DNA of 61,603 nucleotides from a virus (IMGVR_UViG_3300034101_004648:1-61603); one strand, 5' to 3'. Positions 28,350 to 52,927 are shown, numbered from the stretch's first letter. Numbers and translations: made by a program. The notes: a model not told the origin generated them from the letters alone.

Positions 28350-28359
28350 CGGGAAAACT
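28350..28359 (+). promoter_or_regulatory. late motif CGGGAAAACT
   Basis: 31 nt before 28381. Confidence 0.7.
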
Positions 28360-28380
28360 GCTGCAGAGACTGCAGTAGCC

Positions 28381-29820
28381 ATGCCCAAGGGATCCCGCCG
28401 AACGTCCTACGTGCGGGATGGTCGCGGCCGGTTTGCGAGCACGCCAGGCGGCGGCGCCCCCAAGCGACCGCCTGCCAAGCGGGCCAGCCGCGGCACCAAT
28501 CGCCTGACGCGGGATAACTCCGGGCGCATCACCAGCGTGGGCGGCAATGGCGCCACAGCCCGCGGAGGACGGCTGCGCACCGGGGCGGGGAACCTCAGGG
28601 CCAGGCAGACCGATCGCCTCAAGGGGGCGCCTCAGGGGGTGCTGAGCAGGGGAGGGAAGGCGCGGGGGAAGGTGGCTGCGGCAAAGGCTGCACCGCCCAA
28701 ACCCACCGCACCGAAGCGTGTCACGGCCACCCGGCAGCGCGTCAAGCCGCCCGTGGGCACGCCTCGCAAGGGGCAGGTGGCGCGGGCACTGGCACGGGCC
28801 CAAGCCAACATGCAACGCGCCATCGCGGCAGTGGACAAAGCACAGGGGAGAAACAAGAGAAACATCAGCAGAGCCTCCGCTGAGGCGGGCATTCTTCAAC
28901 TTTCAAAGCCAGGTAGCGCTGAGGCGAGAAAGGCGAAGGCCGCCTATGACCGCCTAGAGAAAAAGATCAAGAAAGGCGAGAAAACACGTACCGCTGCCGC
29001 TAACGCTAAACAGAGATTTAGGGCGTTAGAGCGTGCGATGACGCGGGGCTACGGCCCCACGATTGCCAGGGCCAAGGTCCGAGCCGGCGGCAATCGGTCG
29101 CTCCTGGAGCCAGCGCCGGGCGATCGGATCAAGGGCGGCCGGCAAGGGGGCACCATCGCCAAGCCCCGCGGGATGAAACCGGGGGCACTGGCAGCCAAGC
29201 GACAGAAGCCCGCCGGCAAACAGAAAAAGCCGCTAACCAAAGAAAGAATTAGCGCGGCTAAGGGGAAAATCACCGCCAAATTAACCGCCGTTTTGGATGA
29301 AATCAGGAAAGTCGAAAACGCCAAGAATCGCGATAACACCCCAGCCTCAAGCGGCTTTAGCCCTCGCTACCTTAAACTGATCGCAAGAGGGCAAAAGGCT
29401 GATAAGCAGCTGGAATCACTAAGAAGAGCTTCAAAAAGGCTTAAGCAAATTGAACTAAGCTACGATCCCGCAAAGTATGGCTATGGTCGCGGCACAGATC
29501 AGCGCAAGTCTCTGGCGACTGAGATCCGCAACGCTCGCAAGCAGCTCACGACACTGCAACGCGAAGAAGCTACAGCAAAAAAAGTGTATGAAGCTGATCC
29601 CGTTGTTAAATTCGGCTTATGGGGGGAAATTGGACAAAATAGAAAGCAATCACGCAAAGCAAAAGAAAGACGCTCTAACGCATCAATGAACAGGGCTGAT
29701 AGGTATATTGGCGCAAGGATTGCAATAAGGCAGCAGCAAAACGCAATCAAGCAGCTAAGAGATAAAGCAAAGCAACAAACACAAGAGACAAACAAGCGCC
29801 AGAAGCCCCGCAAGCCCTGA
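28381..29820 (+). CDS. basic RDxxGRF-leader protein A
   Basis: MPKGSRRTSYVRDGRGRFAS; Arg/Lys/Ala-rich. Confidence 0.75.
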   Translation: MPKGSRRTSYVRDGRGRFASTPGGGAPKRPPAKRASRGTNRLTRDNSGRITSVGGNGATARGGRLRTGAGNLRARQTDRLKGAPQGVLSRGGKARGKVAAAKAAPPKPTAPKRVTATRQRVKPPVGTPRKGQVARALARAQANMQRAIAAVDKAQGRNKRNISRASAEAGILQLSKPGSAEARKAKAAYDRLEKKIKKGEKTRTAAANAKQRFRALERAMTRGYGPTIARAKVRAGGNRSLLEPAPGDRIKGGRQGGTIAKPRGMKPGALAAKRQKPAGKQKKPLTKERISAAKGKITAKLTAVLDEIRKVENAKNRDNTPASSGFSPRYLKLIARGQKADKQLESLRRASKRLKQIELSYDPAKYGYGRGTDQRKSLATEIRNARKQLTTLQREEATAKKVYEADPVVKFGLWGEIGQNRKQSRKAKERRSNASMNRADRYIGARIAIRQQQNAIKQLRDKAKQQTQETNKRQKPRKP

Positions 29821-29822
29821 TC

Positions 29823-30905
29823 ATGGCCACCATCGGCGACCAACAACTCCAGCTGGCCGACGACTACGCCGCCGCCCTGGACGCGATCGGCGATCGGGCC
29901 ACCACCAACACCAAGGCGGCCCTGCGCCGCTCCCTGGTCCGCACCCTGCGGGATCTGCGCCGGTACTACGGCCAGTTCGTGGACCCCAATCTCCCGGACC
30001 AGCCCAGCGCCGATGGCGTGACCCGCCAGCCGGGGTCCTATTCGATCGCCGATGGCTCGGCCAAGTTCCGCAAGCTCCTGGAGCTCGCCCAGGCCTTCGC
30101 CTCCGATCGAGAGCTGCAGTGGCTGCAGAACCGCTACCGAGAAGACTTCGCCGAGGCGGTGGCCCTCGGCGGTGATCTGGGCCAGCAGCTCGCGCAGACC
30201 GCCGACCCTGACGCGACCGCACAGGGGGTGTTCGTGGGCGCCAGCAGGGCCGCCGTGGAGGCCGCCGCCAGCACCGCCAGCGCCTACATCAGGGGCGAGG
30301 TGGAGAGCTTCAGGGACAACATTGCCCGGATCGTCACTGATGGCATCGGCCGCGGGAAGGCCCCCCGCGTGCTGGAGCGGGAGATCAGGACGGCACTGCA
30401 GGGGGCCAGGGATCCGCAGGGGCTCAACAACCGCATGGGGTTGGAGCAGCGGGCAGAGCTGATCGCCCGATCGGAGCTGGCCAACGCCTACGTGGGCGCC
30501 CAGAAGGCAACGGCGGCCCGCAATGGGTTCGGCTATGCCCGGTGGATCGCCACCAAGGATGAGCGGACGTGCGCGGTGTGCGCCTCGCGCCATGGCCGGA
30601 TCTACCGGCTGGACGAGATGGTGGGCACGCTTCATCCAAGATGTAGATGTAGCCTATCTCCAGTATCTTCAGAGGCGGTAGAAGAGAAAGACCCCGCCCT
30701 CAGGGCCATCCTGCTGCGGGAGGATTACTGGGAGCGCTCGCGCAAGGCCGTGGCCGAGGAGTTCGCCGCCGCCAAGGGTGGAGCCGATAAGGGCTGGCCC
30801 TTCGCCCGTGCCTCCCAGGTGCTGGAGGAGGCCGTGCGCAAGCCCTCCCCCAGCGAGCGGCGACAGTATCCAGGGATTGAGCGGGCGCCGGTGCCGGTGG
30901 GGTAG
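29823..30905 (+). CDS. MuF / SPP1 gp7-like head morphogenesis (minor capsid) protein
   Basis: RAELIARSE...WIATKDERTCAVC..RHG...HPRCRC. Confidence 0.9.
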   Translation: MATIGDQQLQLADDYAAALDAIGDRATTNTKAALRRSLVRTLRDLRRYYGQFVDPNLPDQPSADGVTRQPGSYSIADGSAKFRKLLELAQAFASDRELQWLQNRYREDFAEAVALGGDLGQQLAQTADPDATAQGVFVGASRAAVEAAASTASAYIRGEVESFRDNIARIVTDGIGRGKAPRVLEREIRTALQGARDPQGLNNRMGLEQRAELIARSELANAYVGAQKATAARNGFGYARWIATKDERTCAVCASRHGRIYRLDEMVGTLHPRCRCSLSPVSSEAVEEKDPALRAILLREDYWERSRKAVAEEFAAAKGGADKGWPFARASQVLEEAVRKPSPSERRQYPGIERAPVPVG

Positions 30906-30922
30906 GGGTGCTCAAGAGGAAG

Positions 30923-30932
30923 CGGGAAAACT
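30923..30932 (+). promoter_or_regulatory. late motif CGGGAAAACT
   Basis: 31 nt before 30954. Confidence 0.7.
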
Positions 30933-30953
30933 GCTGCAGTAGCAGGGCTTTCA

Positions 30954-31970
30954 GTGGCGGGCGGCAGGAAAGGGCGGACTTACAGCCGCGACAACTACGG
31001 GCGGTTCACTAGCCACGGCCAAGGCGCAACAGCCAGGGGTGGGCGACTAAGGACGCCAGTGGGCAACAAGCGCCCAACACGCACCGCTCGACTGGCCCGC
31101 ATGGGCGGCACCGTTGCCAAGCCCAAAGACCTCAGGCCGGGGGCGATCACCAAGAAGGTCAAGTCAGCGCAGAAGCCCGCAACCAAGCCCACGGCGCCCA
31201 GGCGGTCTCAGGCGGCCAAGCCTGCCCGGAAGCCGCCGGTAGCCCGGAAGCGGAGCACGGCGGCGCCAAAAGCGCCCGCAAGCAGCCGCCTGATGCCTGG
31301 GGAGCTGATGAATGCGGTGGCGCGGCCGGTGAACACGATGGCGCGGCCAGCAAGAAGCCGGAACCCGTTTGGGACCAAGGATAAAGTCAAGATGAAAAAC
31401 ATACAGATAGCCTTGGCGGAGGCGGCTAAACTGGGGACTGAGTTTGGCCTTTACAAGCAAGGAAAGCGCAGGGGAGGGCAGGCAATCGCTCGTGTGATCA
31501 CAAGTTTCGGGGGGAGTATTTGGAGTCGGGATGGCGGGGCAATGCCAGTGCCGGCGAGACAAAGAGCACAGTTGAATCAACTGTCAGGGTTCTGGAAAAA
31601 TCCTGCCAAAAGAGCAATAGATGCACGCCGAAGCGGGCATTTATCTACATCAAGCCCACTGGGGCCAATACATCACGAAATTGGTCACACCAAGGATCCA
31701 AGGCTTAAAAAAGAGTACGGCTGGAGTGGCGGCATGAATCAATGGTTCAACAATTATTATGACAAAGGCGAGGGGAAGCGCTCCCTCGCAAAAAGGGTCA
31801 GCCAATACGCCACCACCAACCCCGCCGAGTTCATCGCCGAAACCTACGCCGGCCTTCGCACCGGCCGCCGCTACGACTTCCAGGTGATGCGGGCCTACCG
31901 CGAGGCCATGGGCCTCTCGCCGAACCCTGCCGCCCGCCGCCGCAGCCGCGTGAGAAGACCCAAGCCCTGA
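30954..31970 (+). CDS. basic RDxxGRF-leader protein B with C-terminal zincin metallopeptidase-like domain
   Basis: RTYSRDNYGRFTS; IHHEIGH ... SQYATTNPAEFIAE. Confidence 0.75.
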   Translation: MAGGRKGRTYSRDNYGRFTSHGQGATARGGRLRTPVGNKRPTRTARLARMGGTVAKPKDLRPGAITKKVKSAQKPATKPTAPRRSQAAKPARKPPVARKRSTAAPKAPASSRLMPGELMNAVARPVNTMARPARSRNPFGTKDKVKMKNIQIALAEAAKLGTEFGLYKQGKRRGGQAIARVITSFGGSIWSRDGGAMPVPARQRAQLNQLSGFWKNPAKRAIDARRSGHLSTSSPLGPIHHEIGHTKDPRLKKEYGWSGGMNQWFNNYYDKGEGKRSLAKRVSQYATTNPAEFIAETYAGLRTGRRYDFQVMRAYREAMGLSPNPAARRRSRVRRPKP

Positions 31971-31980
31971 CGGGAAAACT
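31971..31980 (+). promoter_or_regulatory. late motif CGGGAAAACT
   Basis: 30 nt before 32001. Confidence 0.7.
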
Positions 31981-32000
31981 GCGGTAGCACCGTCAGCACC

Positions 32001-32186
32001 TTGGCACGAAGATCCGCCCGCCGCACCTATGCCCGTGATGGCCGGGGCCGCTTCGCCTCGGCTGCACCACCACGCACGACGGGCGCCACGGCCTCCACTG
32101 CTCCCGCTGCTGGGAGCGCTTCACCCCCGAAGGGCGAGCCGATCGAGCAGCACGGCAAGCACGGTTCAGGGCCAAGCGAGCACTAA
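32001..32186 (+). CDS. short or truncated RDxxGRF-leader protein C
   Basis: MARRSARRTYARDGRGRFAS; TTG start 30 nt after the late motif. Confidence 0.5.
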   Translation: MARRSARRTYARDGRGRFASAAPPRTTGATASTAPAAGSASPPKGEPIEQHGKHGSGPSEH

Positions 32187-32211
32187 TCAACCCATCAACA
32201 GAGGATTATTG

Positions 32212-32511
32212 ATGACAGCGAAATCACGGTTTTCCGTTTGCAAGCTTTTCCGTGATGGTGAAGTGATATGGCGAATGCGACTTGACTCGCTGTCGGGCCG
32301 GTCTTGCGGTTTTCAGCTTGCCACGCCAGCGGTAAATCTTAAGCGCAATAACCCTTATGAAAGATGGTGTGTTGCTCAGCAGTTATTGCAATGCCGCCGA
32401 TTACTCCGTGATCGCGTGCGGCAGCTTGACGCTGGACAGTCGGATCAAGAGCGGTCGTTGGCCCACTACACGCGAATGCGCAACCGGGCGGTATTGGATG
32501 GCCGATGGTGA
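32212..32511 (+). CDS. hypothetical protein (lower GC)
   Basis: ATG preceded by GAGG. Confidence 0.45.
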   Translation: MTAKSRFSVCKLFRDGEVIWRMRLDSLSGRSCGFQLATPAVNLKRNNPYERWCVAQQLLQCRRLLRDRVRQLDAGQSDQERSLAHYTRMRNRAVLDGRW

Positions 32512-32534
32512 TCCGACCGGCACCCCCTCCGTAG

Positions 32535-32544
32535 CGGGAAAACT
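32535..32544 (+). promoter_or_regulatory. late motif CGGGAAAACT
   Basis: 32 nt before 32567. Confidence 0.7.
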
Positions 32545-32566
32545 CAGGTACGGCTTGAATGCCCCC

Positions 32567-32815
32567 ATGCCCGACCGCTCCCCCACGCTCCGCCTGTTCC
32601 AGGGCCTCAGCGTCGCCGTGCTCCGCCGCGATGGCCCGGCAGCGCGGCAGGGCCTACGGATGCTCACAGCCGTGGCCGATGACCCGGAGGGGGAGCAGAT
32701 CCTGCGGCTGCTGACCGCCAACCTGGACCCCGAGGGCCGGTACTGGCTGGGCACGCTCCATGGGGCCCGCAAGGGCCTGGAAGATCCGGCGGCGGGAAAA
32801 CTCAGGGCAGCCTGA
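32567..32815 (+). CDS. hypothetical late protein
   Basis: ATG 32 nt after the late motif. Confidence 0.55.
   Translation: MPDRSPTLRLFQGLSVAVLRRDGPAARQGLRMLTAVADDPEGEQILRLLTANLDPEGRYWLGTLHGARKGLEDPAAGKLRAA
32793..32802 (+). promoter_or_regulatory. late motif CGGGAAAACT
   Basis: 35 nt before 32828. Confidence 0.7.
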
Positions 32816-32827
32816 CCCGCGCCGCCG

Positions 32828-33331
32828 ATGCTCGCCCCTGACCCCCTCTGGCGCCCCACGGCCACCAGCACGCGCAACGATCGGGACCTGATCAGGACTT
32901 ACATCGGCTGGCCCGCCACTGAGGGGAGCCTGGTGGAGTTGACCCAGCAGATGAACGCGGTCGCCACGCACAGCCCCAGCACCGTGACGCAGATCCAGGC
33001 GTGGCTGGACGAGATCGTGAACTTGGAGGAGATCCAAGCCGATGAGGTTGACGCGGGCACTGCTCACCTCGGAAACGCCGAGGAATACGAAGGCCCGATC
33101 CCCGGCACCTCGCCCACGCGGGATGAGCAGCTGAATCAGGCCGGCAAGCTGGCGTGGGACACCTCCCTCCTAAAGGCCCGCTACAAGTTCGGCGGCGGCG
33201 CCAGGGCCTCGGCACAGGGGCAGCGGGACGAGCGGACCCAAGCGCTGATCAACCGGATCGCCACGGCCCTCAACGCGCCCCGGATCGCCCCTCAGGGGAT
33301 GAGCGGCGCGGGGATGTTGCTGAGGAGCTGA
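32828..33331 (+). CDS. putative head-tail connector/adaptor
   Basis: Helical 167 aa late protein; function inferred from position. Confidence 0.45.
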   Translation: MLAPDPLWRPTATSTRNDRDLIRTYIGWPATEGSLVELTQQMNAVATHSPSTVTQIQAWLDEIVNLEEIQADEVDAGTAHLGNAEEYEGPIPGTSPTRDEQLNQAGKLAWDTSLLKARYKFGGGARASAQGQRDERTQALINRIATALNAPRIAPQGMSGAGMLLRS

Positions 33332-33386
33332 GCAGGGGCGCCATCGCCCGCCGCACCTCTGATCAGCACACCCTCACGGCAAACCC

Positions 33387-33725
33387 GTGTCTCACCACCA
33401 AATTGAAGGGTCCGAGCTTCTTTCCAAGCGTGTCACCAAGCATCGATTCAGGCGGGGAATTATTGAGGCGTGGGATGGTTGTTGCGCCTATTGCGGTTGC
33501 CAGCCTGACAAGATCACCCTCGATCATGTTGTCGCCAAGATAAACGGCGGCACAACGCAGCGATCCAACCTAATCCCGGCTTGCGCTCCCTGCAATGGCT
33601 CTAAGAATCACTGTGATGTGTGGCAGTGGTATCAATCACAGCCCTTTTATTGTGCTGATAGGTGGCTAAAAATAAGGGCTTGGTTGGCGTCGTCAGGTGC
33701 CCCGATGCTGGAGGCCTCCGCGTGA
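33387..33725 (+). CDS. HNH endonuclease
   Basis: CAYCG...TLDHVV...GG....NLIPACAPCNGSK. Confidence 0.9.
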   Translation: MSHHQIEGSELLSKRVTKHRFRRGIIEAWDGCCAYCGCQPDKITLDHVVAKINGGTTQRSNLIPACAPCNGSKNHCDVWQWYQSQPFYCADRWLKIRAWLASSGAPMLEASA

Positions 33726-33752
33726 GCGGCGTGCGTGGCTTGGCGGATCCAG

Positions 33753-33762
33753 CGGGAAAACT
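33753..33762 (+). promoter_or_regulatory. late motif CGGGAAAACT
   Basis: 31 nt before 33784. Confidence 0.7.
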
Positions 33763-33783
33763 GCGGGCAGCTGCTCACAAACC

Positions 33784-33903
33784 ATGCCAGCAGGTGGAAT
33801 GCCTTACTTCGGCGGGATGCCCGGTAAGCCCAAGGCCGGCAAGAAGGCCGCCAAGTCCAAGGCGAAACCCAAGGGCGGGAAGAAGGCCAAGCCGATGAAG
33901 TGA
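33784..33903 (+). CDS. 39-aa Lys-rich peptide
   Basis: MPAGGMPYFGGMPGKPKAGKKAAKSKAKPKGGKKAKPMK; ATG 31 nt after the late motif. Confidence 0.6.
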   Translation: MPAGGMPYFGGMPGKPKAGKKAAKSKAKPKGGKKAKPMK

Positions 33904-33914
33904 GCCCAGGACCA

Positions 33915-33924
33915 CGGGAAAACT
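33915..33924 (+). promoter_or_regulatory. late motif CGGGAAAACT
   Basis: 32 nt before 33947. Confidence 0.7.
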
Positions 33925-33946
33925 GCGAGCAGTAGACCCCGATCCC

Positions 33947-35299
33947 ATGGCCCGCGGCGGCAGCAGAGGCAGACGCACCAGCTACGTGCGCGACAACGGC
34001 GGGCGCTTTGCCTCGACCCCCGGCGGCGGACCGCCCAAGCGCAGCACGCCGGCCACCAGGCGAGCGGCCAGGCCCAAGGTCACCGGTGGCACCCTCGGGG
34101 CCCGTGGGAGCCTCCGCCGCAGCCGCACCAAGCTGGCCGGCAAGGATCCCGCCGATCGCAGCCTGAGGGGATCGCTCAGCCTGCGTGCTCAGAAGGGGGC
34201 CGTCACCAGGGGCGCCAACCGGCTCGGGAAGGCGCGGGCGGCCTCCACGGTGCGGATGGCTGGGAAGGGGCCAGCGGGGGTGATTCGGAAGGGCGGGAAG
34301 GGGGCGGCCAAGCCTGTGGCGGCGGCCAAGTCGTCGGTGAGGGTGATTCGCCCCAATCGCCCCGCAATGCGGCCAGGGCCCACAGCCGATCGCGGCAAGA
34401 TCAGCGAGTACGTGGGCGCGGTGAGAGGGGCCCGGCGGCGGCTCAGCAGCGCCAAGCCAGGCACTGCCAACGCAGCCGAGGCAAAGCAAGGCCTCAAGGA
34501 CAGCCGGCAGGCACTGAGCCGCCGCATCCAGCGGGAGCGGGGCGCTCGCCGTGGCCTGAGGCCAGCCACTTCCCAGCAGGTTCTGACCAGCACGGTTCCG
34601 GCGCCTCCGGCGAGGCGTATGAAGGCCGCACGGCCGGCGGGGACGGTGGTGAAGCCGAAGGGGTTGAAGGTGGGGGCGATTGCGGAGAGGAAGGGGGCGA
34701 AGGCTGCTGCGGCCAAGCCCGGCAAGGCCAAGGCGGCGTCAGCGCCAAAGATCAACGGCAAAGAGTGGACCTCCTTGAGCCGTCTCCGGGGAGCGGTTCC
34801 ATTTGATCGAGGGAGAGGGCAGACCGGGTACTTTATCCCTGGTTCATCCTTGACTCCTGCAAAGCGAAATAAGCTAGGGCTAGGCGCATTTAAGTCGGAA
34901 GTTAGTGGAGGCAACTTCACCGCGCAAAGGCACACTCAAGGAAGTCAAGAGGGCTGGATTATCAGCCCAAGAACCCAGCGCGGCGAGACTCCTATTCAGA
35001 TTCAGCGGGCCAAGTCATCCAAGAAACCGAAAACAGCAGACGACTTGCTGACACAGGCAACACGAATTGAGGCCGTGGGTCGTCGTATGTCTCGGGCCGC
35101 CCGCACAGGCTTCAGGGATCGTCAGATTGAGGCCAGGGCCGTGCGTGCAGCAAAGGCGGCGAGGCAACGGGCCTTTGACATGCAAAAGCCACCATCCAAG
35201 GCCGAGCTGAAAAGACAGGAGCAACGGCTCAATTCACCGACCACCGCAGGGCTAAACGCTCGCATTGCGCGTGACTACGCCGCGAGAGGCCGCCGCTAA
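33947..35299 (+). CDS. basic RDxxGRF-leader protein D
   Basis: RRTSYVRDNGGRFASTPGGG. Confidence 0.75.
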   Translation: MARGGSRGRRTSYVRDNGGRFASTPGGGPPKRSTPATRRAARPKVTGGTLGARGSLRRSRTKLAGKDPADRSLRGSLSLRAQKGAVTRGANRLGKARAASTVRMAGKGPAGVIRKGGKGAAKPVAAAKSSVRVIRPNRPAMRPGPTADRGKISEYVGAVRGARRRLSSAKPGTANAAEAKQGLKDSRQALSRRIQRERGARRGLRPATSQQVLTSTVPAPPARRMKAARPAGTVVKPKGLKVGAIAERKGAKAAAAKPGKAKAASAPKINGKEWTSLSRLRGAVPFDRGRGQTGYFIPGSSLTPAKRNKLGLGAFKSEVSGGNFTAQRHTQGSQEGWIISPRTQRGETPIQIQRAKSSKKPKTADDLLTQATRIEAVGRRMSRAARTGFRDRQIEARAVRAAKAARQRAFDMQKPPSKAELKRQEQRLNSPTTAGLNARIARDYAARGRR

Positions 35300-35302
35300 C
35301 CC

Positions 35303-35773
35303 ATGCCCACCCCCTTCGCCCCCTTTGCAAACCTCCGCCTCCTCTGGCGGCGCCCCACCGCAGCGGCTACCAGCCTGCGGGAGGGGCTGCAGCGGGCCAC
35401 TGATCTGGTGGTGATCGAGGCCTTTGCTGAGGCCCAGGACCCCGGCGGCGAGCGGGAGAGTGGCGGGCGATCCATCGGCTCGGGCGGCATCGAGGGCAAC
35501 ATCACTCGCTGGGCCGTGGTGCCATCCGGCGCCAACTGGCTGGACGAGGGGGGCGCCTGGAGTTGGACCGATACCGGCCTCAGGCCCACGGGGCTCCCCC
35601 GCGGCGAGAAGCTGGAGGCGTTCATGGGCGATCTCTCAATCCTGCCGGCCACCACCGAGTCGGAGCGCGGCTGGGTCACGATCGCCACCCTCTCGGGCGT
35701 CGGCGGCATTGATGCCCTGATCCGCGTTGAAGCCGGCGACGAGTTCACCGGCACCTTTGCGGCGGGGCGATGA
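35303..35773 (+). CDS. putative head-closure/neck protein
   Basis: Beta-rich 156 aa; position. Confidence 0.45.
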   Translation: MPTPFAPFANLRLLWRRPTAAATSLREGLQRATDLVVIEAFAEAQDPGGERESGGRSIGSGGIEGNITRWAVVPSGANWLDEGGAWSWTDTGLRPTGLPRGEKLEAFMGDLSILPATTESERGWVTIATLSGVGGIDALIRVEAGDEFTGTFAAGR

Positions 35774-36270
35774 GGGTCAGCACCAGGGCCACGGTGCGCG
35801 TGAACCCGGCCACCCTCACCAGGGCGCAGCGGGCATCAGAGGCGGCGGCGCGAGTGGTGTTCCCCGAGCTGAACAGCGCCTTTCAGGATGCGTTGGGCAC
35901 CAAGGCATGGGATTGGCCACGGGTGACCATGCGCGGGGGCGCCTTCCGCCGCGATGGCAGCCGCACCAGGGGCCGCCCGGTGGGATCGCCCCGGAACATC
36001 GTGGACCTCGGCACCCTGCGGGCCAGCAACTCCTTCCAGATCAGCGGCAACCTCTGCACCTTCAGGTGGGCCGTGGGCTACGCCACGGCGGTTCACTACG
36101 GCGCGAACATCCATCCCTGGGGCGACAGGACCCGCCCCCTCGTGAACCTGCCCGCCCGGCCCTGGACTTCGGCGGTGATCGGGACCATCAAAGTTCCCGG
36201 CATCGAGCCCTATGACTATCGGGCCCAATACCGGGCATCATTCATCCAAGCCTTCCGCAGCCTGAAATGA
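35770..36270 (+). CDS. HK97 gp10-like tail-completion protein
   Basis: IVDLGTLRAS...YATAVHYG...LPARPW. Confidence 0.65.
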   Translation: MRVSTRATVRVNPATLTRAQRASEAAARVVFPELNSAFQDALGTKAWDWPRVTMRGGAFRRDGSRTRGRPVGSPRNIVDLGTLRASNSFQISGNLCTFRWAVGYATAVHYGANIHPWGDRTRPLVNLPARPWTSAVIGTIKVPGIEPYDYRAQYRASFIQAFRSLK

Positions 36271-37094: not shown

Positions 37095-37555
37095 TCCTCG
37101 CCGAGACCAACCGCAATCGCGAAGCCCAGCCCGAGCCCTACAGCCTCCGGGACTTCTGCTTCTGGGTGGAGGTGGCCGAGAAGCCGCGCCCCCCGAGCGA
37201 GGCCGGCGCCGCCCTGCTGGAGCTGCTGGAGCGCAACCTCCTGCCGGGGTTCGTGCTCGACGGCCCATGGCTGGCCGATCTGGAGGCCCAGGGCCGAGGC
37301 GTCGCCCCACCGCCGCGGCTGTGTTGGGCGGCCGAGGATGTGATCCTCCTGGCCCCCTATCGGGTGGATGCAGGCCACTGGGGCGGGTTCCTCGTGGCCC
37401 AGGCCAGTGCCGCGGGCCGGGTGCGGGAGTTCGCCTCTGAGGTCGGCGAGGTCGTGGCCCTGCGGGTGCCCACCGATGCGGTGCCGGGGCGATCGTTTGC
37501 CGCTGCCCAGGCCGGCGCGGTGCTGGTGCTGGCGAGCCGGGAAAACTCCAGGTAG
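36881..37555 (+). CDS. tail assembly chaperone -1 frameshift extension (GT form)
   Basis: The -1 frame is open from the slippery site through the 37166-37555 ORF: DWARAFWDCRRFWP...YSLRDFCFW. Confidence 0.65.
   Translation, partial: VAGGGRLDCDRPDWARAFWDCRRFWPGAPEFSRERFGKLPAGYVLQALQAGHAAERERLHREEKGVAQIALILAETNRNREAQPEPYSLRDFCFWVEVAEKPRPPSEAGAALLELLERNLLPGFVLDGPWLADLEAQGRGVAPPPRLCWAAEDVILLAPYRVDAGHWGGFLVAQASAAGRVREFASEVGEVVALRVPTDAVPGRSFAAAQAGAVLVLASRENSR
37538..37547 (+). promoter_or_regulatory. late motif CGGGAAAACT
   Basis: 36 nt before the tail tube start. Confidence 0.7.
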
Positions 37556-37573
37556 AGAAACCACCCCCTGGCC

Positions 37574-38440
37574 ATGTCCTCGACCGTTGATTACGCCGCC
37601 GCGCTGGATATCCAGCATTTCATCGTCCCAATGCGACTCGCATCCGTGGCACTGGAAGATGCTGCTGCCGCCGCCGCCAACAACGGTGCGAACCTCAGCG
37701 CCTGGCTGAACACCGCCAACGCGATCAGCGGCGCCGCCACCGTGAGCACCAGTGGGGAGGCCTCCACCTTCCAGCTGAGCGTGAACGGCGTGGTCCTCAC
37801 AGTCAGCAATGCGGCGCTCGCCGCCAACGTGGTGACCCTGACCCTCAACGCCGCTGCTGGCGTGCTCGTGGGTGATCGGATCACCGTGGCCGCCCTTCCG
37901 AGCTCCTTCGCGAGCTGTAACGGCACCTTCACCGTGACGGGGGTTACCACCGCCTCCCCCTTCACCGTGAGCTATGCCCTCACCGGCGCCAACATCACCT
38001 CAGCCGCCGTTGCCGCTGGCACCGTGACCACGGGCCTCTACCCCTTGGATGGAACCGGCAAGCCGATCCAGCTCCTCAACGTCACCGGCGCCCCCCTCTC
38101 GACGCAGGAACAGGACGAGAAAGTTCTCACGCACGATCAGGTAACCCGCGGCGCTTCAATCTCTATCGGAATCAATACCGACTCCAGCATCGCCTTTAAG
38201 GGTATGACCGTGCATAAATCGGTCGATCACAAGATCATGGAGGTGATCCGACAGCTGGGTGTTGCTGAGAAGCTCGCCGTTAAGTATCTGCGGGTCGGGC
38301 CTGGTGGCACCACTGAGAAGAAGCTCTGCTACGGCCGGATCACTTCCAAGCAGGAGGAGGGCGATGCAGGCGCTCTGGTGAAGTACGGCGCCAGCCTGAT
38401 GGTGCTGGGCCAGGTTCACACCATCTACGACAACGCCTGA
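37574..38440 (+). CDS. major tail tube protein with an inserted beta-barrel domain
   Basis: Tube-like C-terminal half (KYLRVGP...CYGRITSKQEEG..LVKYGASL); has its own late motif. Confidence 0.6.
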   Translation: MSSTVDYAAALDIQHFIVPMRLASVALEDAAAAAANNGANLSAWLNTANAISGAATVSTSGEASTFQLSVNGVVLTVSNAALAANVVTLTLNAAAGVLVGDRITVAALPSSFASCNGTFTVTGVTTASPFTVSYALTGANITSAAVAAGTVTTGLYPLDGTGKPIQLLNVTGAPLSTQEQDEKVLTHDQVTRGASISIGINTDSSIAFKGMTVHKSVDHKIMEVIRQLGVAEKLAVKYLRVGPGGTTEKKLCYGRITSKQEEGDAGALVKYGASLMVLGQVHTIYDNA

Positions 38441-38617
38441 AGTGGATATTGACGGTCAGGTGCATTTGGTGGTCTCAGACAGCCGGCCAGGGCAGCGCCT
38501 GTGGCGCGTCTGCTCCGGTGGCTCCTGCCTGGTGCATCGGAGCCTCGGGGTGGTGATGGGGCACTACCGGGCGCTGCTGATCAGCCAGGGGCGAGAGGTT
38601 GGCGAGGGGTGAGCATG

Positions 38618-38654
38618 AAAAAGCCCAGGGGTTCTGACTCCCCTGGGCCTTGTT
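38618..38654. terminator. terminator between convergent blocks (possibly bidirectional)
   Basis: AAAAA-GCCCAGGGG-loop-CCCCTGGGC-CTTGTT. Confidence 0.7.
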
Positions 38655-38677
38655 GAAGCATCCCGCAGTAGTCTAGG

Positions 38678-38935
38678 TCAGGACAGGGGCGGCACAAAGG
38701 GCCACCCCTCTTTCGGCGCCTGCAGCCCCTTCCTCAGTAGACCCTCCGCCAGCTCGTCAACGGTGACCCCCTGCAAGGCGGCCATCGCCTCCAGCCGCTC
38801 CACCGCGTCAGGGTCGATGTCTACCAGGACCTCGGTCATGGGGGCCGCCTTGATCCACAGGCTGTAGAACCAGGCACCGCAGGCGAAGGCCTGCAGCACT
38901 ATCAGGGTGAGCGCGATGGCCTTGAGGGTGTCCAT
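38678..38935 (-). CDS. membrane-anchored ribbon-helix-helix-like protein
   Basis: TM helix then VDIDPDAVERLEAMAALQGVTVDELAEGLL. Confidence 0.55.
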   Translation of the reverse strand: MDTLKAIALTLIVLQAFACGAWFYSLWIKAAPMTEVLVDIDPDAVERLEAMAALQGVTVDELAEGLLRKGLQAPKEGWPFVPPLS

Positions 38936-39000
38936 GTGTGATCGGGAATTGGGTGGTGATTCAGAAGCAGTCTAAATCTGGACAGGGGCGCGGCCATGTA

Positions 39001-39285
39001 TCAAGAGGCCTTCCTGATCTGCATCACAAGGTCAAGAGGCCTGAGGTTCCTGCCATGGTGAGCGACAAGCTCAATGCGCCATTCTGTGCCGCAGTCCTGG
39101 CAGCGCAGGGGGATGGCCAGGCATTCGGCCAAGATGGTTCCTTCTGTTTGCCCGGTTTTAATGGGTGTCATCATTGCGACAGAGCTACTGACGCAGTGCG
39201 GGCAGCTGATCACCTGTGCCGTGCATTCGTCAACCTCAACGGCGTACGGTGCGAGGGTGGCATCAGGGGCAAGCGCGGTAGGCAT
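39001..39285 (-). CDS. zinc-ribbon protein
   Basis: CPHC...CQDC. Confidence 0.55.
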   Translation of the reverse strand: MPTALAPDATLAPYAVEVDECTAQVISCPHCVSSSVAMMTPIKTGQTEGTILAECLAIPLRCQDCGTEWRIELVAHHGRNLRPLDLVMQIRKAS

Positions 39286-39603
39286 GGAGTCGCTGGCTGT
39301 GAATGACCTTGGTAGCTTATCTAAATCCAAGTCTGGACAGGGGCGCTGCAGCATTACAGCATCAGGTTTCGCACCAGCTCGACTGGGGTAACCTGCGGCA
39401 GTCCGGGTTGGCCCGAATACAACACCAGTCCCTGACTGGGAATTACGGCAGGGGTGGGGGGTTTGTAGTGGCCTCCCTGAAACCTCATCCAACGACCCGG
39501 CGTAACAATCGCTTGACAAAACGCGGGCGATTAGCCCTACGCTTTGAGGACCTTGGCAGGGATGCCAGGGGCTCACTACTTCCCGCTTCGAGCGGGATAA
39601 CCC

Positions 39604-40287
39604 ATGAAGAACGCGAACTGCGGCCCAGCTTTGCTGTCGGCCGGCATCGAGGCCCGGCAGTGGAACGGCTGCGCAATTCAGCGCCGCGAGGCGGATGGCT
39701 TTGTGAACGCCACGGCCATGTGCAAGGCCGGCGGGAAGCGGTGGACGCTCTACTCCGCCAATGACCGAACCAAGGAGTACGTCTGCGCCCTTGCCGAGGG
39801 GTTGGGCATTCAGATCCCTTGCGGCGCAGCCGAGGTCGGAATTCCGACTTCGGGAATCCACGGCCTGATTCACATCGTCAAGGGCGGCCGGCCCGAGCTG
39901 CAGGGCACCTGGATCCATCCCCGCTTGGCCGTCGATCTGGCCCGCTGGATCTCACCAGCCTTTGCCGTTTGGATGGATGGCTGGTTCCTGGAGTCCATCG
40001 GCGTGGCCCAGTCCGCCACTGCAGAGCCCCTCCAGCAGCGCACCGCCGCCGCATCGCGCCCCCGTGGCCTGCGGCAGGATCCCGTCTGGAAGTCGTCCTA
40101 CTACCTCCCGGCCCTGATTCATCAGCGCTGGATCGGTGACCCCGAGGCCAACGAGATCATCCGGGGCATCGCTCACCACCTGCTGCTCTCCTGCGGCCCC
40201 CTGCCGGCCATAGCAGCAGTGGACGAGGCGGCTCTGGGCTGGAGCCGGGCCATGAAGGCACGGACGGGGCAGCAGGTTTGGTGGTGA
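39604..40287 (+). CDS. KilA-N domain protein (antirepressor-like)
   Basis: DGFVNATAMCKAGGK...QGTWIHPRLAVDLARWISPAFAVW. Confidence 0.9.
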   Translation: MKNANCGPALLSAGIEARQWNGCAIQRREADGFVNATAMCKAGGKRWTLYSANDRTKEYVCALAEGLGIQIPCGAAEVGIPTSGIHGLIHIVKGGRPELQGTWIHPRLAVDLARWISPAFAVWMDGWFLESIGVAQSATAEPLQQRTAAASRPRGLRQDPVWKSSYYLPALIHQRWIGDPEANEIIRGIAHHLLLSCGPLPAIAAVDEAALGWSRAMKARTGQQVWW

Positions 40288-40332
40288 TCGCCAGGGCGGG
40301 CCGGGCGCTTCCGGTGGAGGCCGCCAGCTCGC

Positions 40333-40569
40333 CTATCCCTCGCGGGCCCACTGGATCAGCCGGGCATCCCTAAAGCTCAGCCTGGCCTCGCACTCAAAGA
40401 CCACGATTGGCGGCGGGGTCATAGTGGGCGAGCCGGGAGGGGCTCCGCTGAACAGGTCAAAGCGCCGGGCGCAGTCGTGGCACCCCTCGCGCCAGAACCA
40501 CTCATGGCCCTCCTGCTCGCCCACGCCGGGGCAGCGCTCTATGTCGGGCGGGAGGGATGGGGTGGTCAT
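40333..40569 (-). CDS. Cys-containing hypothetical protein
   Basis: ATGA-coupled. Confidence 0.55.
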   Translation of the reverse strand: MTTPSLPPDIERCPGVGEQEGHEWFWREGCHDCARRFDLFSGAPPGSPTMTPPPIVVFECEARLSFRDARLIQWAREG

Positions 40570-40790
40570 GGCAGGCGGCAGTATTCACGAACGCGATCGG
40601 CGGAATCCCCTGCAAGCTCACGGGCGGCTTGCAGGTTGTCGGCGTACTTGATCTCCAGCAGGGCGCCGTAGGCCTCGCCGAGGGCATCCCAGCGGCGCAG
40701 CTCGCGCTCTGTTGCGGGCAGGGGGAATGGGACCAGCCGCTGAGCGATTGCGTACAGGCGGAGCTGGCGGAGTAGGTGGAAGATGTTCAT
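40566..40790 (-). CDS. hypothetical protein
   Basis: Coupled ORF. Confidence 0.5.
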   Translation of the reverse strand: MNIFHLLRQLRLYAIAQRLVPFPLPATERELRRWDALGEAYGALLEIKYADNLQAARELAGDSADRVREYCRLP

Positions 40791-40832
40791 GGGCTTAGTG
40801 GCTGGTGAGTGGTCGGCAGGGGTCGTGATCGC

Positions 40833-41054
40833 TCATGCCTTCCCGCCCCACTTCTTCCGCTGAAATCCACGCACCGAATCCCGGCGCATCAGCACGTGGG
40901 GGCCACCGCCGATGGGGATCAAGCACACGTGACCCGGCAGGTCGGGCAGGCCGCGAGGGGTGTAGGTGCGGCCATTGGGCCCGGCCCAGAAGTCACCGAG
41001 GCGGAACCGATCGGCGCGAGGCGTGATGATCCCGGTGAAGGCGGATTTTTTCAT
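40833..41054 (-). CDS. hypothetical protein
   Basis: ATGA-coupled. Confidence 0.55.
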   Translation of the reverse strand: MKKSAFTGIITPRADRFRLGDFWAGPNGRTYTPRGLPDLPGHVCLIPIGGGPHVLMRRDSVRGFQRKKWGGKA

Positions 41055-41422
41055 GGCCGACCCCCTTCGCTGCAGCAATAGGCCTCGCAGGATCGAGCCC
41101 AGTCGTGGTTGTCCGTCGCCTCGGGGAAGTGAAGACTGCAGAAGCCGTAGAACCTTCGCTCCGTGCCGCCCGTTGTGCGCCGATATGGCCTCTCCTCAAA
41201 CAGGCGGCACGACCGGCACGTGCGAACGATGTCGGCCACGGGGATGCGTGGCAGCTCTGACGCATAGGAGGCCCACATCATGCCAACCCGCACACGGCGC
41301 ACCGCCTCGGCATTCATATCCAGCCGGCGGCCGATGACCGCGTGGGCGATGTCGGCGGGGGTCTCCAGGATGGCCCTGGCAAGCGTCTCCCTGGTCGCGT
41401 CGTCGTAGGTGCGGCGGGTCAT
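41051..41422 (-). CDS. HTH + Cys-cluster protein, resembles the C-terminal part of 21707-22183
   Basis: IGRRLDMNAEAVRRVRVG...CRSC...CEAY. Confidence 0.55.
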   Translation of the reverse strand: MTRRTYDDATRETLARAILETPADIAHAVIGRRLDMNAEAVRRVRVGMMWASYASELPRIPVADIVRTCRSCRLFEERPYRRTTGGTERRFYGFCSLHFPEATDNHDWARSCEAYCCSEGGRP

Positions 41423-42492
41423 ACAGCCTCCTGCAGCACGCTGACCCACACGGTCCCCAGGTCAAGCAGGGGAAGGATCCGATCGCGGAGATCCTGGTTG
41501 TGGAGGCGGATGCAGCCAAGGGTCGGGTGCAGCTCCTGCCGTGGGTTCCAGGCCCCCGGCCAGCCGCAGGCGCTGCCGCCACCGTGCAGCATGATCCCGT
41601 CGCGATAGGGCCGTGATGTGGGCCCCTCCTGCCCTTCCAGCCCCTCCAGGTCAAACGAATACCAGCCGTAGGCGCGGCGATCGGGAGTGAATGCCGCGGT
41701 CGGGTCCTGTTCGTAGTCGCGGTGGACGCCCTTCGGGTTGATCCGGTAAAGCCCCGGCGGGGTGTCGGTGCCCGTGCGGTTCCACTCGGCCTCCCTCCCC
41801 TGCCCGCGGCACAAGCAGGGGATCCTCCACAGCCGGCGCCCGTCGTGGGTCCAGGCCGTAAGGGTTTCGTTCACGTCGTTGGCGATCAGGTGGTGATCAC
41901 CCGCCTTCAGGGTGGGGCGGATCTTCGGGCCCACCGTCCCCGGCGACCAGATCGGCGGGCCCTGGGGGGCGGGGCCACCAGGTGGGCGCGGTGGCGTGGC
42001 GATCGTGACAGGGGCGGGAGCGCCGGCCACGAACAGGGCCACCTCTGCCGCCCGGCGCCGCACCAGGCCCGCCATGATCTTCTTCCCGGCCTTGCTCCAG
42101 CGGGGCAGCTCGGCCTTCACCACGGCCTCGGGGTTCTCGCCGGCCAACAGGCGCCGCCGCAGGGTGGAAATCTCCAGGCTCCTGGGGCCCACGTTGAAGG
42201 TAAAGCTGATCAATGCCGCCTGCTGCTTCGGGGTCCACGTCCCGGCCATCGGGAGCAGTCGGAACACTTCGACGGCGGCGCGGTTGATGTCCGTGGTCAA
42301 CATGCCCTCAGCAACCGCCTGGGTGATCACGGCGCCCTCCACCACGTCGGACCCGGTGTGCCCGTAGCCGATGGTCCAGGGATCGCCCCCGCTGCCGGGG
42401 TCGGGGTAGGCGGTGAGGCGGCACCCCTCGAACTCGGCGACGATCTGCCGGGCTGGGGCTAGCCACTGGAGATCGGGGGGATTGGTGCTCAT
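41419..42492 (-). CDS. endolysin: GH24 lysozyme fused to an L,D-transpeptidase (YkuD)-like domain
   Basis: EFEGCRLTAYPD...WTIGYGHT...ALISFTFNVG...GLVRRRAAE; C-terminal DTPPGLY...MLHGGG...TLGCIRL. Confidence 0.85.
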   Translation of the reverse strand: MSTNPPDLQWLAPARQIVAEFEGCRLTAYPDPGSGGDPWTIGYGHTGSDVVEGAVITQAVAEGMLTTDINRAAVEVFRLLPMAGTWTPKQQAALISFTFNVGPRSLEISTLRRRLLAGENPEAVVKAELPRWSKAGKKIMAGLVRRRAAEVALFVAGAPAPVTIATPPRPPGGPAPQGPPIWSPGTVGPKIRPTLKAGDHHLIANDVNETLTAWTHDGRRLWRIPCLCRGQGREAEWNRTGTDTPPGLYRINPKGVHRDYEQDPTAAFTPDRRAYGWYSFDLEGLEGQEGPTSRPYRDGIMLHGGGSACGWPGAWNPRQELHPTLGCIRLHNQDLRDRILPLLDLGTVWVSVLQEAV

Positions 42493-42656
42493 CAGAGAGG
42501 CCATTCGGAGATCGTCTGCCAGCCCTCGCCCTGCAGCCGGGCCACCTCGGCGGCGACCTGCTCGGGGGGGCACGTCCACCACCAGCGACCTGCTGCCCTC
42601 CTGACCGGGCGGGAGGGCCGTTGGCTCCTCACAGATCAGCCGAACGAGGCCGCAGG

Positions 42657-42875
42657 TCATCGCCGCATCCCCTGGCGCATCGCCCAGGCCGTGGCTGCCT
42701 TTTGGGCGTACCACGACTGGAGTAGGAGCTTCGCCAGGTTGCGGAGGCTCAGCACGTCGTCCACCTCGTCAAGGAGGCGGCCTATGCGCTCAATCTCAAA
42801 CGCCTGGGCGGTGCTCAGCTCCATGCCTGCGGGGTCCGCAGGGAGGAAACCGGCAACAGGATCGGGGGCTGGCAT
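42657..42875 (-). CDS. NblA-like phycobilisome degradation protein (putative)
   Basis: Two-helix core LSTAQAFEIERIGRLLD...LRNLAKLLLQSW...WAMRQ resembles NblA's LSLEQQF...; recognised by eye only. Confidence 0.5.
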   Translation of the reverse strand: MPAPDPVAGFLPADPAGMELSTAQAFEIERIGRLLDEVDDVLSLRNLAKLLLQSWYAQKAATAWAMRQGMRR

Positions 42876-42942
42876 GGCAGCAGAATAGCTACCCAAATCC
42901 AGATAAGCATCAGGTCGGCGAGAGGATCCATAACTGGGCCAG

Positions 42943-42952
42943 CGGGAAAACT
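42943..42952 (+). promoter_or_regulatory. late motif CGGGAAAACT
   Basis: 36 nt before 42979. Confidence 0.7.
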
Positions 42953-42978
42953 GCGGCAGAAGCTCTGACCGCTCCGCC

Positions 42979-44430
42979 ATGCCACGAGGCCGCCGCACCA
43001 GTTACACCCGCGACAACAGCGGCCGGTTCGCCAGCTCGCCAGGCGGCGGGGCCCCGAAGCGGAGCACCCCAGCGACCCGGCGGGCGGCCACCAGGGCGGG
43101 GAACCGGCTGAACCGGGACAACAGCGGGCGGATCAGCGGGATCGGCCGGAACGGGGCCACGGTGCGCGGCGGGAGACTGAAGACGGCCAAGGGGAACAAG
43201 CGGGCCACGCAGCTGGCCTCGATGCGCCCGGCGGTGCCCAGGGCGGGCACGATCGCCAAGGGCGGCCGAGGCGTGCGCGGGATGGTGGCGCGGAGCCTGG
43301 CGGCGGCACGGAAGGGGCGGATGGCGGCGGCGGCAGGCCTCTCCCGTGCTCGCCCCGGACAGCAGCAGCGGGCCTTGCAGCGAGCGCAGGCAAACGAGAA
43401 GCGACTCCAGGGCCCGGCGGCAAGGGGGACCAGCACCAGAACGAGGGCCGGGGTTGGCTATGCGGTAGCCAAGGGGGCACAGGGCTACTACAGCGGTAGC
43501 ACGCCAAGGCGAAAGGCTACATTTTCGCCGCTTACTGGGTCTATGGACAAAAAGGCGCTGGCGGCGCGTCGCAAGCAGGCTGTTGATAACAACAAGCCGC
43601 AGAAAGGCAAGGCGGCCAAGCCTGCAGTGGCGGCCAAGGACTCCGCCAAGCCCGCCAAAAAGGAGTCCAAGCGCAATATCAGCGATGCCAAGGCAGGCCG
43701 GATCATTGCGAGGCTTGACGCGAACAGGCCTGGATTGCGGAAGGCGACAGGCTCGGATCGTCGCAACAGAAACCTGCTGCAGACCTACGACCGGGCCAGC
43801 AAGTTTGTTTTGGCGGCTTCTACGCGAGAAAGCAAGCGTACCGGCGGACAGGGACGCATGGACCTTGCCGAGTCCGTGCGCCGGGCAGTCCGCAATGCCA
43901 AGGCGAAGGCTAAGCCCAAACCCAAGCCCGCCATCCTCGGAAGGGTGCCCACAAAGGGCCCCGGTCGCGGGCCGTTGATGAAGGCCAGGGCGACCCCCGC
44001 CAAGCCCAGCCCCAAGAGTCCACGCATCCGCGCCCGCATTGAAGGCTCCGCCCGCCCCGCCGGGACCGTGGCCAAGCCGCGGGGGATGAAGCCGGGGGTG
44101 TTGGCGCGGAGGAGGGGGGTGAAGCCGTTCAAAAAGGTTGACACAAGCCAAAGCGGAGTCAAAGCAAGGAGACAACGTGCATTGGCCCCAAAAAACTCAA
44201 CCTATTTAAGCCAAAAGATGGAATCAAGGAGCGCTATTGTCAGGAGCGCTGCTAATGCTATTTACAACCGCCAGCGAACCACAGGCAAGGTGTTAGGCCT
44301 TGCTCCTGTCGTTGTTCGCCAGCCGATTGGAATCATGCCTGGCCTTTCAGGTAGCAATCGCAATAGGGCAATGGCAAACCTTGAAAATGCCAGAACACGA
44401 GTGATAAAAGGTCGCAAGGGCCGCCGCTAA
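42979..44430 (+). CDS. basic RDxxGRF-leader protein E
   Basis: MPRGRRTSYTRDNSGRFASSPGGG. Confidence 0.75.
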   Translation: MPRGRRTSYTRDNSGRFASSPGGGAPKRSTPATRRAATRAGNRLNRDNSGRISGIGRNGATVRGGRLKTAKGNKRATQLASMRPAVPRAGTIAKGGRGVRGMVARSLAAARKGRMAAAAGLSRARPGQQQRALQRAQANEKRLQGPAARGTSTRTRAGVGYAVAKGAQGYYSGSTPRRKATFSPLTGSMDKKALAARRKQAVDNNKPQKGKAAKPAVAAKDSAKPAKKESKRNISDAKAGRIIARLDANRPGLRKATGSDRRNRNLLQTYDRASKFVLAASTRESKRTGGQGRMDLAESVRRAVRNAKAKAKPKPKPAILGRVPTKGPGRGPLMKARATPAKPSPKSPRIRARIEGSARPAGTVAKPRGMKPGVLARRRGVKPFKKVDTSQSGVKARRQRALAPKNSTYLSQKMESRSAIVRSAANAIYNRQRTTGKVLGLAPVVVRQPIGIMPGLSGSNRNRAMANLENARTRVIKGRKGRR

Positions 44431-52907: not shown

Positions 52908-52927
52908 GAAGCAGTTACGGAACGCCC

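Follow-up and report, generated by a model that had tools for sequence, protein, structure and literature searches.

The internal proteins of T-even phages, as described in PMC3012670, are diverse and have only an N-terminal capsid targeting sequence in common, and those of T4 sit within the packaged DNA and are injected. In phage P1, the first 30 residues of DarB are reported to suffice for encapsidation (PMC9024508), and MuF and zincin peptidases have been presented as hubs of delivered "polyvalent" proteins (PMC5512222, Iyer et al. 2017). Here we analysed an IMG/VR virus record of 61,603 bases (IMGVR_UViG_3300034101_004648, estimated completeness 94%), the whole of which is called the window in what follows. 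It carries five open reading frames (ORFs), A to E, that begin with a common leader and belong to an unannotated family of late accessory phage genes, each of which is a self-contained cassette. By analogy with the T4 internal proteins, the leader proteins may be DNA-associated proteins of the head interior that are addressed by their N-terminal domain and co-ejected, a reading to which we give a little less than even weight.

All five ORFs proposed by the initial annotation were found on the + strand, at 28381-29820 (A, 479 amino acids, aa), 30954-31970 (B, 338 aa), 32001-32186 (C, 61 aa), 33947-35299 (D, 450 aa) and 42979-44430 (E, 483 aa). Their alignment contains the invariant residues M1, Y, R, D, G, R, F and S (Y-x-RD-xx-GRF), and the continuation GAT(A/V)RGGRL(R/K)T, announced for three members, is seen in A, B and E; D carries a diverged version of it. 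A lies between the portal gene and the MuF gene (slot A), with its stop 2 nucleotides (nt) ahead of the MuF start, and B follows the MuF gene (slot B). These two ORFs flank, as noted at first, the gene of the MuF-like minor head protein (29823-30905, +), whose assignment was confirmed by PF04233 (E=2e-14). B is made up of a short N-terminal domain, the junction peptide described below and a zincin-like C-terminal domain. D occupies slot D, directly before a neck gene that starts at 35303, and E occupies slot E, between the lysin gene and the gene at 44433 that precedes the tape measure. The initial annotation had counted five members; A, B, D and E are intact, but C is a deletion remnant with a net charge of +6, in which about 20 leader residues are fused out of frame to the tail of another gene (junction at about 32055-32073). 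In relatives, slot C holds a gene of 433-577 aa and 2768 more letters than in the window. The deletion, of 2.3-3 kb, occurred at GCACCACCAC, a 10-nt microhomology, and removed the gene body together with sequence beyond it.

When the leader genes were compared with their orthologues, the ratio of nonsynonymous to synonymous substitution rates (dN/dS) was 0.40-0.49 for A, 0.16-0.41 for B, 0.15-0.22 for D and 0.48-0.60 for E. The range of 0.15-0.60, found in all nine orthologue pairs, indicates purifying selection, and therefore the leader ORFs are real coding genes. They had failed a simple GC3 filter (G+C content at third codon positions), and gene callers often truncate them, as might be the case for chance ORFs in GC-rich DNA. 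This explanation, to which we attach practically no probability, is ruled out by the dN/dS values; moreover, the peptide motifs survive synonymous change, an upstream element stands at a fixed distance, and hundreds of homologues exist. As for the truncation, the Atlas entry for B starts at residue 50 and public gene calls include a version of E with 295 aa, and therefore automatic annotation hides the common leader.

A word-based search with E returned 67 homologues of 267-799 aa, all labelled "hypothetical", many of which are 85-98% identical to E across only its first 14-28%. With the five-row alignment as query, a scan of IMG/VR gave 74 related loci, which together with the window contain 154 leader ORFs, 98 of them unique and complete. 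From 19 diverse N-termini we delimited a domain of about 85 aa (N-domain) with 22 invariant columns and the consensus Y.RD..GRF, then N(R/K)L(T/N)RDN.G(R/K)I, then GAT.RGGRL.T..G..R; it is rich in Arg and Gly and contains two RDxxGR[FI] repeats. In A it covers residues 1-85 (28381-28635, +; alignment A4 and profile search), with the three blocks Y.RD..GRF, NRLTRDNSGRI and GATARGGRLRT..G..R. A second N-terminal type, to which the N-region of D belongs, keeps the first motif and continues with a different conserved block. A profile search of 1.84 billion proteins with the N-domain yielded 323 cluster representatives at E<=1e-3, 160 of them at E<=1e-10. Among the 150 matches listed, nearly all begin at or near residue 1, the exceptions including P0068 (best stretch at residues 65-117) and three rows that start at the second motif. 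The leader noticed at first is thus the beginning of a real and widely conserved N-terminal domain.

The family is nearly invisible to reference collections. The N-domain had no match in Pfam and a single one among PDB sequences, to a ribosomal protein at E=1.3, which was taken as chance; its best score in the Atlas search, 0.84, was below the tool's lead level. The 98 complete proteins gave one match in PHROGs, of unknown function, and single weak matches to five Pfam families, including PARP, DnaJ and Peptidase_Mx, and NCBIfam returned for the leader proteins a sub-threshold DnaJ match alone. Among 185,579 species genomes the leader was matched once, on a 1.2-kb contig. No MuF domain was detected in any of the 70 + 98 + 140 family members searched, and no form longer than 846 aa was found, which is weak evidence.

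The neighbourhood of the leader genes is kept even in distant relatives, with portal identity down to 27-45%. Its order is terminase, sigma-like gene, portal, slot A, MuF, slot B, slot C, two small conserved genes (with an optional HNH gene), a small leader gene, slot D, neck genes, major tail, lysin on the opposite strand, slot E, the homologue of gene 44433 and tape measure. All ten near-complete relatives carry leader genes, from one to five copies each, and in 64 of 133 complete leader ORFs the ATG of the next gene lies at most 6 nt after the stop. At the place of the small leader gene, which in relatives encodes a protein of 184-186 aa, the window has an ORF of about 36 aa (33793-33903), very basic and rich in K, G and P, with its own copy of CGGGAAAACT at 33753.

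Within a cassette, a late-gene element is followed by the N-domain, a polybasic linker of variable length, often a 26-aa peptide, a C-terminal module and a basic tail. The exchange of C-termini that the initial annotation had suspected is extensive: when 90 proteins were compared over their last 130 residues, 40 unrelated families were distinguished. We counted at least 7 C-terminal families in slot A, at least 10 in slot D and 6 in slot E behind near-identical leaders, and one family can stand in different slots and after different leaders, such as family 7 in D and E and the peptidase family in B and A. Of 462 pairs with near-identical leaders (pairs that are not independent of one another), only 22 are colinear to the end; 204 diverge near the end of the N-domain, 34 just past the 26-aa peptide and 202 elsewhere. 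The divergent parts are AT-richer, as had been described: N-terminal parts have a GC3 of 0.8-0.97, that of the genome, and C-terminal parts a GC of 0.43-0.55. The pairing of gene ends holds in part. The 14-mer GGCCGCCGCTAACC is confined to the ends of D and E (none of 100 shuffles had any copy), but the pair formed by the two copies of CAAGCCCTGA is weak, since one shuffle in 100 also reaches two, and both pairs belong to a general basic C-terminal tail, with three or more K/R in the last six residues in 75 of 98 relatives.

Contigs of natural relatives, about 94% identical to the window in the portal, show exact loss and replacement of cassettes. Joints were seen from 28349 to 29828, so that slot A is exactly absent with 15 letters between, from 30903 to 31955 (slot B absent) and from 33831 to 35291 (slot D absent), and 34260-35296, the C-part of D, is found swapped for 1221 other letters. 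Near-identical DNA is present in lake-water metagenome runs (in run X3, 12 of 14 contigs at >=99%), and RNA-library runs X23 and X24 contain contigs of 54-64 kb of a relative at flat depth, which indicates presence and not transcription. Uncovered stretches in X23, X24 and X4 were not counted as evidence unless a contig joined across. The 3' boundary of a cassette falls in the last codons, and different C-terminal modules of relatives finish in one ...taaCC(C)ATG junction with the next gene. Promoter and leader on the 5' side and last codons and next gene on the 3' side are held in common, and homology for swapping would therefore be available; new combinations presumably arise by homologous recombination at these two ends.

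The internal motif G-T-[IV]-[AV]-K-P-[RK]-x-[LM]-[KR]-x-G, attributed to the four long proteins, occurs once in each of A (aa 257), B (aa 52), D (aa 232) and E (aa 362). It is part of a 26-aa peptide, (K/R)AARPxGT[IVL]xKP[RK]G[LM]KPGA[LI], that is found in 55 of the 98 proteins. In the window it is encoded on the + strand at 29131-29208 (A, aa 251-276, containing GTIAKPRGMKPGAL, 45 bits), 31089-31163 (B, aa 46-70, 41 bits), 34622-34699 (D, aa 226-251, 44 bits) and 44047-44121 (E, aa 357-381, 46 bits). In most slot A and D proteins this peptide begins the last 220-230 residues or so, whatever module comes after, and in slot E it mostly stands about 117-155 residues from the C-end, again irrespective of the module. 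Paralogues encode both this peptide and the leader with many synonymous differences, and selection therefore acts on the peptides and not on a DNA site. The suggestion that the conserved blocks as such are recombination sites in the DNA was not supported: they are kept as peptides, and block ends account for no more than about half of the similarity breakpoints.

The proteins are extreme polycations, in agreement with the basic bodies first noted. A, B, D and E have a pI (isoelectric point) of 11.8-12.0, 22-26% K+R and net charges from +57 to +103 (A, pI 11.8 and +92; D, pI 12.0 and +84; E, pI 12.0 and +103). The 98 family proteins, which span 61-812 aa, have a median net charge of +84, with 24.4% K+R and 5.0% D+E, and in no stretch of 19 residues does the number of strongly hydrophobic ones exceed 10. 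The charge-hydropathy boundary places all 98 on its disordered side and 22 of 23 other window proteins on its folded side, the phage scaffold being the only one of these near the disordered side. An AlphaFold model of E, built on a 70-row alignment, reached a pTM of 0.24 and consists of isolated helices and coil with no globular fold, and in the model of B residues 1-140 mostly have a pLDDT below 50. The leader proteins are predicted to be largely unfolded.

That the variable parts are enzymatic payloads in general was not borne out, a Pfam match of any kind being found in only 2 of 140 representatives. At most one domain per protein was recognised, and weakly, the sole two-domain case being the slot-B protein L044, which has PARP-like and zincin parts. 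The best defined module is the zincin-like domain of B (aa ~141-320, 31374-31913, +), with HEIGH at 31674-31688 and EFIAE at 31827-31841. In B and ten orthologues (11 sequences), H241, E242, H245, E292 and E296 are invariant, in the arrangement HE.GH followed 46 residues on by EF.AE, so both the HExxH motif and the downstream Glu ligand expected of a zincin are conserved; the Peptidase_Mx match (E=0.0074) is sub-threshold, at 16.2 bits against a cut-off of 27. NCBIfam gave no match for this domain, and a search of PDB sequences with the B family gave none. The model of B has a low mean pLDDT of 51, with values of 55-79 over aa 141-320, where a helix, a sheet, the HExxH helix and long helices are seen. 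Its best Foldseek match is a predicted zincin-like protease, 3e11_A, which is weak (E=0.062), and VIA-align gave Z 5.0 to 2ejq (rmsd, root-mean-square deviation, 4.0; 83 aligned) and Z 4.2 to 3e11 (rmsd 4.8; 87 aligned), both below the tool's trust level. All fold matches were weak, and several were to small zincins. In the ESM Atlas, the domain lies near mostly viral clusters that are automatically named neutral zinc metallopeptidase, lethal-factor family and M90 (feature score 0.95), and the Atlas's own model of it has a TM of 0.53 to viral "neutral zinc metallopeptidase"/"lethal factor family" clusters. The peptidase is clearly present in only 2 of the 10 other near-complete relatives and is an optional module, probably not the processing enzyme of the family. 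Weak PARP matches were obtained for an insert in L044 (E=0.0035) and for one representative (E=2e-4), and the slot-D protein L062 has a J-domain-like HPD motif. Judged from motifs and weak matches, zincin-like peptidase, PARP-like stretch and J-domain thus appear to be module types of a minority of members; the other modules are unassigned.

A copy of CGGGAAAACT stands 30-36 nt ahead of each of the five leader starts, at 28350-28359 (A, where the deletion joint of relatives begins at 28349), 30923-30932 (B), 31971-31980 (C), 33915-33924 (D) and 42943-42952 (E), all on the + strand. This much of the initial annotation stands, but the element is not specific to leader genes. The window has 17 exact copies, all on the + strand, 30-36 nt ahead of many late genes, among others the portal, major tail, tape-measure and scaffold genes (starting at 961, 26776, 28350, 30923, 31971, 32535, 32793, 33753, 33915, 37538, 42943, 44877, 52898, 53392, 55455, 56344 and 58570), and 20 matches with at most one mismatch, as compared to 2.74 expected. 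Since it is spread genome-wide before late genes, it is no mark of the leader family. It is often followed by GCNGCAGTAG; related loci, 876 kb in all, contain 307 copies on the gene strand and a single one on the opposite strand, and it lies 25-45 nt upstream of 132 of 153 leader ORFs, CCGGAAACCT-like variants taking its place in distant relatives. A candidate reader is a phage sigma-factor-like gene beside the terminase (25865-26842, +; phrog_36098, E=9.5e-16), for which Pfam gave no match at 0.001. Together with this gene, CGGGAAAACT is best read as a putative clade-specific late promoter or leader element. Over 26.5-45.5 kb, a sigma-70 promoter scan found no promoters, and a terminator scan gave a count below the shuffle mean.

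How does this family compare with the described systems? Like the T4 and T-even internal proteins (IPI, IPII, IPIII and the polymorphic IP loci, as far as they are described in the source cited above), it comprises several unrelated, basic and dispensable proteins per genome that have only N-terminal sequence in common and whose set varies between close relatives. Unlike in T4, where a short peptide is shared, the common part is an 85-aa domain; the leader proteins, of up to 812 aa, exceed those of T4 greatly in size and in basicity and are unrelated to them in sequence, and their genes stand apart from one another in fixed slots of a siphovirus-type structural module. Among the approximately 40 window ORFs scanned for it, a prohead protease was not recognised, and packaging of the leader proteins is a prediction. 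The P1 Dar system, in the account of PMC9024508, also loads a delivered protein into the head by an N-terminal signal and has its genes near the portal, as would be the case here, but according to that paper the Dar proteins have no N-terminal consensus in common. They are, moreover, large folded enzymes, whereas the leader proteins are polycations. With polyvalent proteins, as presented in PMC5512222, the family has in common the MuF neighbourhood, the zincin HExxH peptidase, an ADP-ribosyltransferase-like stretch and modular shuffling. The MuF/portal virion-gene context of that class is found here, whereas its 2-15 effector domains per polypeptide are not: each module has a small gene to itself, equipped with a promoter and the common leader, instead of being strung into one giant polypeptide, most members have no recognisable domain, and Pfam searches on the family turned up no polyvalent-protein model. 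The adenovirus core proteins VII, V and Mu are Arg-rich, compact the packaged genome and travel on it into the cell, with a DNA-bound protease packaged alongside; they come from an unrelated virus lineage and have no homology to the leader family, in which processing is unsupported. A shared address with polymorphic cargo is a principle known from T4. The N-domain, the polycationic bodies, the 26-aa peptide and the dispersed cassettes, each equipped with a promoter, in a siphovirus-type module were found undescribed in the databases and literature searched (open-access papers and bioRxiv).

We read the leader proteins as head cargo because the domain is strictly N-terminal, exchange behind it is free, the charge is extremely positive, no stable fold is predicted, late signals precede the genes and these are embedded among portal, MuF and neck genes; the peptidase, PARP-like and J-domain types also match delivered phage proteins. 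As to virion location, DNA binding and ejection, we infer the following course. The N-domain would dock the protein to an inner procapsid component (portal, MuF or scaffold), the polycationic body would lie along the packaged DNA, the unfolded protein would leave through the tail together with the genome, and the C-terminal module would act inside the newly infected cell. Several observations weigh against it. The leader proteins are known from sequence alone, and 50,697 GenBank phage records contained no match for E, the leader or the B domain. Every single cassette is dispensable in some relative, and therefore none is an essential structural protein; slot E lies within the tail module and not the head module. 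In the model of E the N-domain has a pLDDT of 45-61 and no confident fold, and an 85-aa Arg/Gly-rich domain could bind nucleic acid and not a capsid part. Most variable parts have no recognisable domain. Finally, no prohead protease was recognised among the approximately 40 window ORFs scanned, which are not every ORF, and a T4-like cleaved targeting sequence would therefore have no visible protease.

A rival that we consider unlikely, though a serious one, is that the proteins are late nucleic-acid binders that stay outside the virion. N-domain and polybasic body would bind DNA or RNA in the infected cell and remain unpackaged; their task might be to compact the host nucleoid or replicated phage DNA, to supply condensing counter-ions close to the packaging motor, or to build condensates. 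The extremely positive charge, the disorder and the Arg/Gly-rich N-domain with its two RDxxGR repeats agree with this, and the PRG.KPG core of the junction peptide loosely resembles minor-groove hooks. The genes, however, belong to the head, neck and tail modules and not to the replication module, and they are tightly coupled to MuF and to neck genes; a strictly N-terminal domain before freely swapped C-terminal modules is the pattern of an address tag, and peptidase, PARP-like and J-domain modules fit pure DNA compaction poorly. Binding of a structural partner by the N-domain could also make the proteins assembly helpers, scaffold- or chaperone-like for portal, neck or tail, that leave before or during packaging. 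We find this quite improbable. The slots do adjoin portal, MuF, neck and tape-measure genes, the expression signals are common to structural genes, and the real scaffold of the phage is alone among the other window proteins in nearing the disordered side. Yet known scaffolds do not resemble proteins with net charges of +57 to +103 (the scaffold of the window has a pI of 5.2), each slot is empty in some near-identical relative with copy numbers from 1 to 5, and 40 unrelated C-terminal modules are unexpected for a factor with a fixed partner.

Within the head-cargo reading, one may further suppose that the peptidase B cuts family members at the 26-aa peptide and frees their C-terminal modules. 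This peptide sits between linker and C-terminal module at a fairly fixed distance from the C-end, and in B itself it separates the leader from the peptidase domain; the catalytic motif does not vary across 11 orthologues, and autoprocessing by such peptidases is proposed for polyvalent proteins in PMC5512222. We nevertheless regard it as having only a slim chance of being correct, slightly slimmer than that of assembly helpers: besides the scarcity of the peptidase among the near-complete relatives (2 of 10), 43 of the 98 proteins have no 26-aa peptide, and the relative G002, 100% complete and without the peptidase, has a slot-D protein that carries the peptide. It is very improbable that the family represents MuF-type polymorphic toxins by which temperate phages serve bacterial competition, a family described in PMC5576092. 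Variable C-termini do adjoin a MuF gene, and the window has an integrase-like gene at 1692-2792. On the other hand, neither the N-terminal MuF domain with a C-terminal toxin nor the prophage location that define these toxins (Jamet 2017) was found: no member of the leader family has a MuF domain, and the one match of the leader among species genomes lies on a contig of 1.2 kb. No immunity-like gene stands behind, the next gene being structural or another cassette, and toxin-type domains are almost absent among the members searched.

As to the rest of the phage, the large terminase is encoded at 24267-25814 and the portal protein at 26808-28349 (+; DUF4055, E=9e-15). The nearest GenBank relatives of the portal are those of the cyanosiphoviruses S-CBS2, PSS2 and S-CRES1-3; at 34-35% identity they are too distant, and therefore the host cannot be named from the portal. 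Leader genes were not found next to the portal in S-CBS2 and S-CRES3. A major tail-like protein (37574-38440), a tape measure of 1340 aa (44912-48934), a scaffold-like protein (55506-56327) and the major capsid protein (56512-57489) follow downstream. The head genes are split, with portal and MuF 25 kb upstream of scaffold and major capsid protein and the tail genes between. The integrase-like gene (phrog_1, E=1.3e-11) suggests that the phage may be temperate, although the leader family is essentially missing from the bacterial genomes searched. The lysin (41419-42714, - strand) combines a phage lysozyme domain with an L,D-transpeptidase (YkuD) domain, and the HNH endonuclease gene (33387-33725; PF01844, E=7e-9) is variably present among otherwise colinear relatives. 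The neighbouring genes 52928-53371 and 53422-53871, whose upstream elements and first codons are nearly identical, look like a tandem duplication (52898-53871). In two relatives the MuF gene is enlarged: in L070 (4886-8377) it encodes 1164 aa with two repeated C-terminal units, ParB-like by eye, and in L053 (4245-6140) 632 aa with an insert that is intein-like by eye; Pfam recognised in both the MuF domain alone. No tRNA genes were found in a scan.

The leader family is large, lacks a useful entry in every database searched, and its members are routinely truncated by gene callers, so that it constitutes an unnoticed recurrent component of abundant lake phages. The polymorphism of cassettes among genomes whose portals are about 94% identical suggests an arms-race function. 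Should the N-domain prove to be a head address, it would be the first described shared targeting domain for a siphovirus-type lineage, a ready tag to load foreign proteins into capsids, and part of a natural system for the neutralisation of DNA charge in the head and for the travel of unfolded proteins with the genome. A wider proposal, which taken as a whole we think probably goes too far, would see in the N-domain a general head-address tag in a large group of uncultured siphoviruses, in the polycationic bodies a packaged phage "protamine" coat, in the 26-aa peptide a DNA hook or release site, and in the genes dispersed, promoter-equipped cargo cassettes. Were this the case, the coat would neutralise part of the charge of the genome, shield the entering DNA from host nucleases and carry swappable effectors into the cell.

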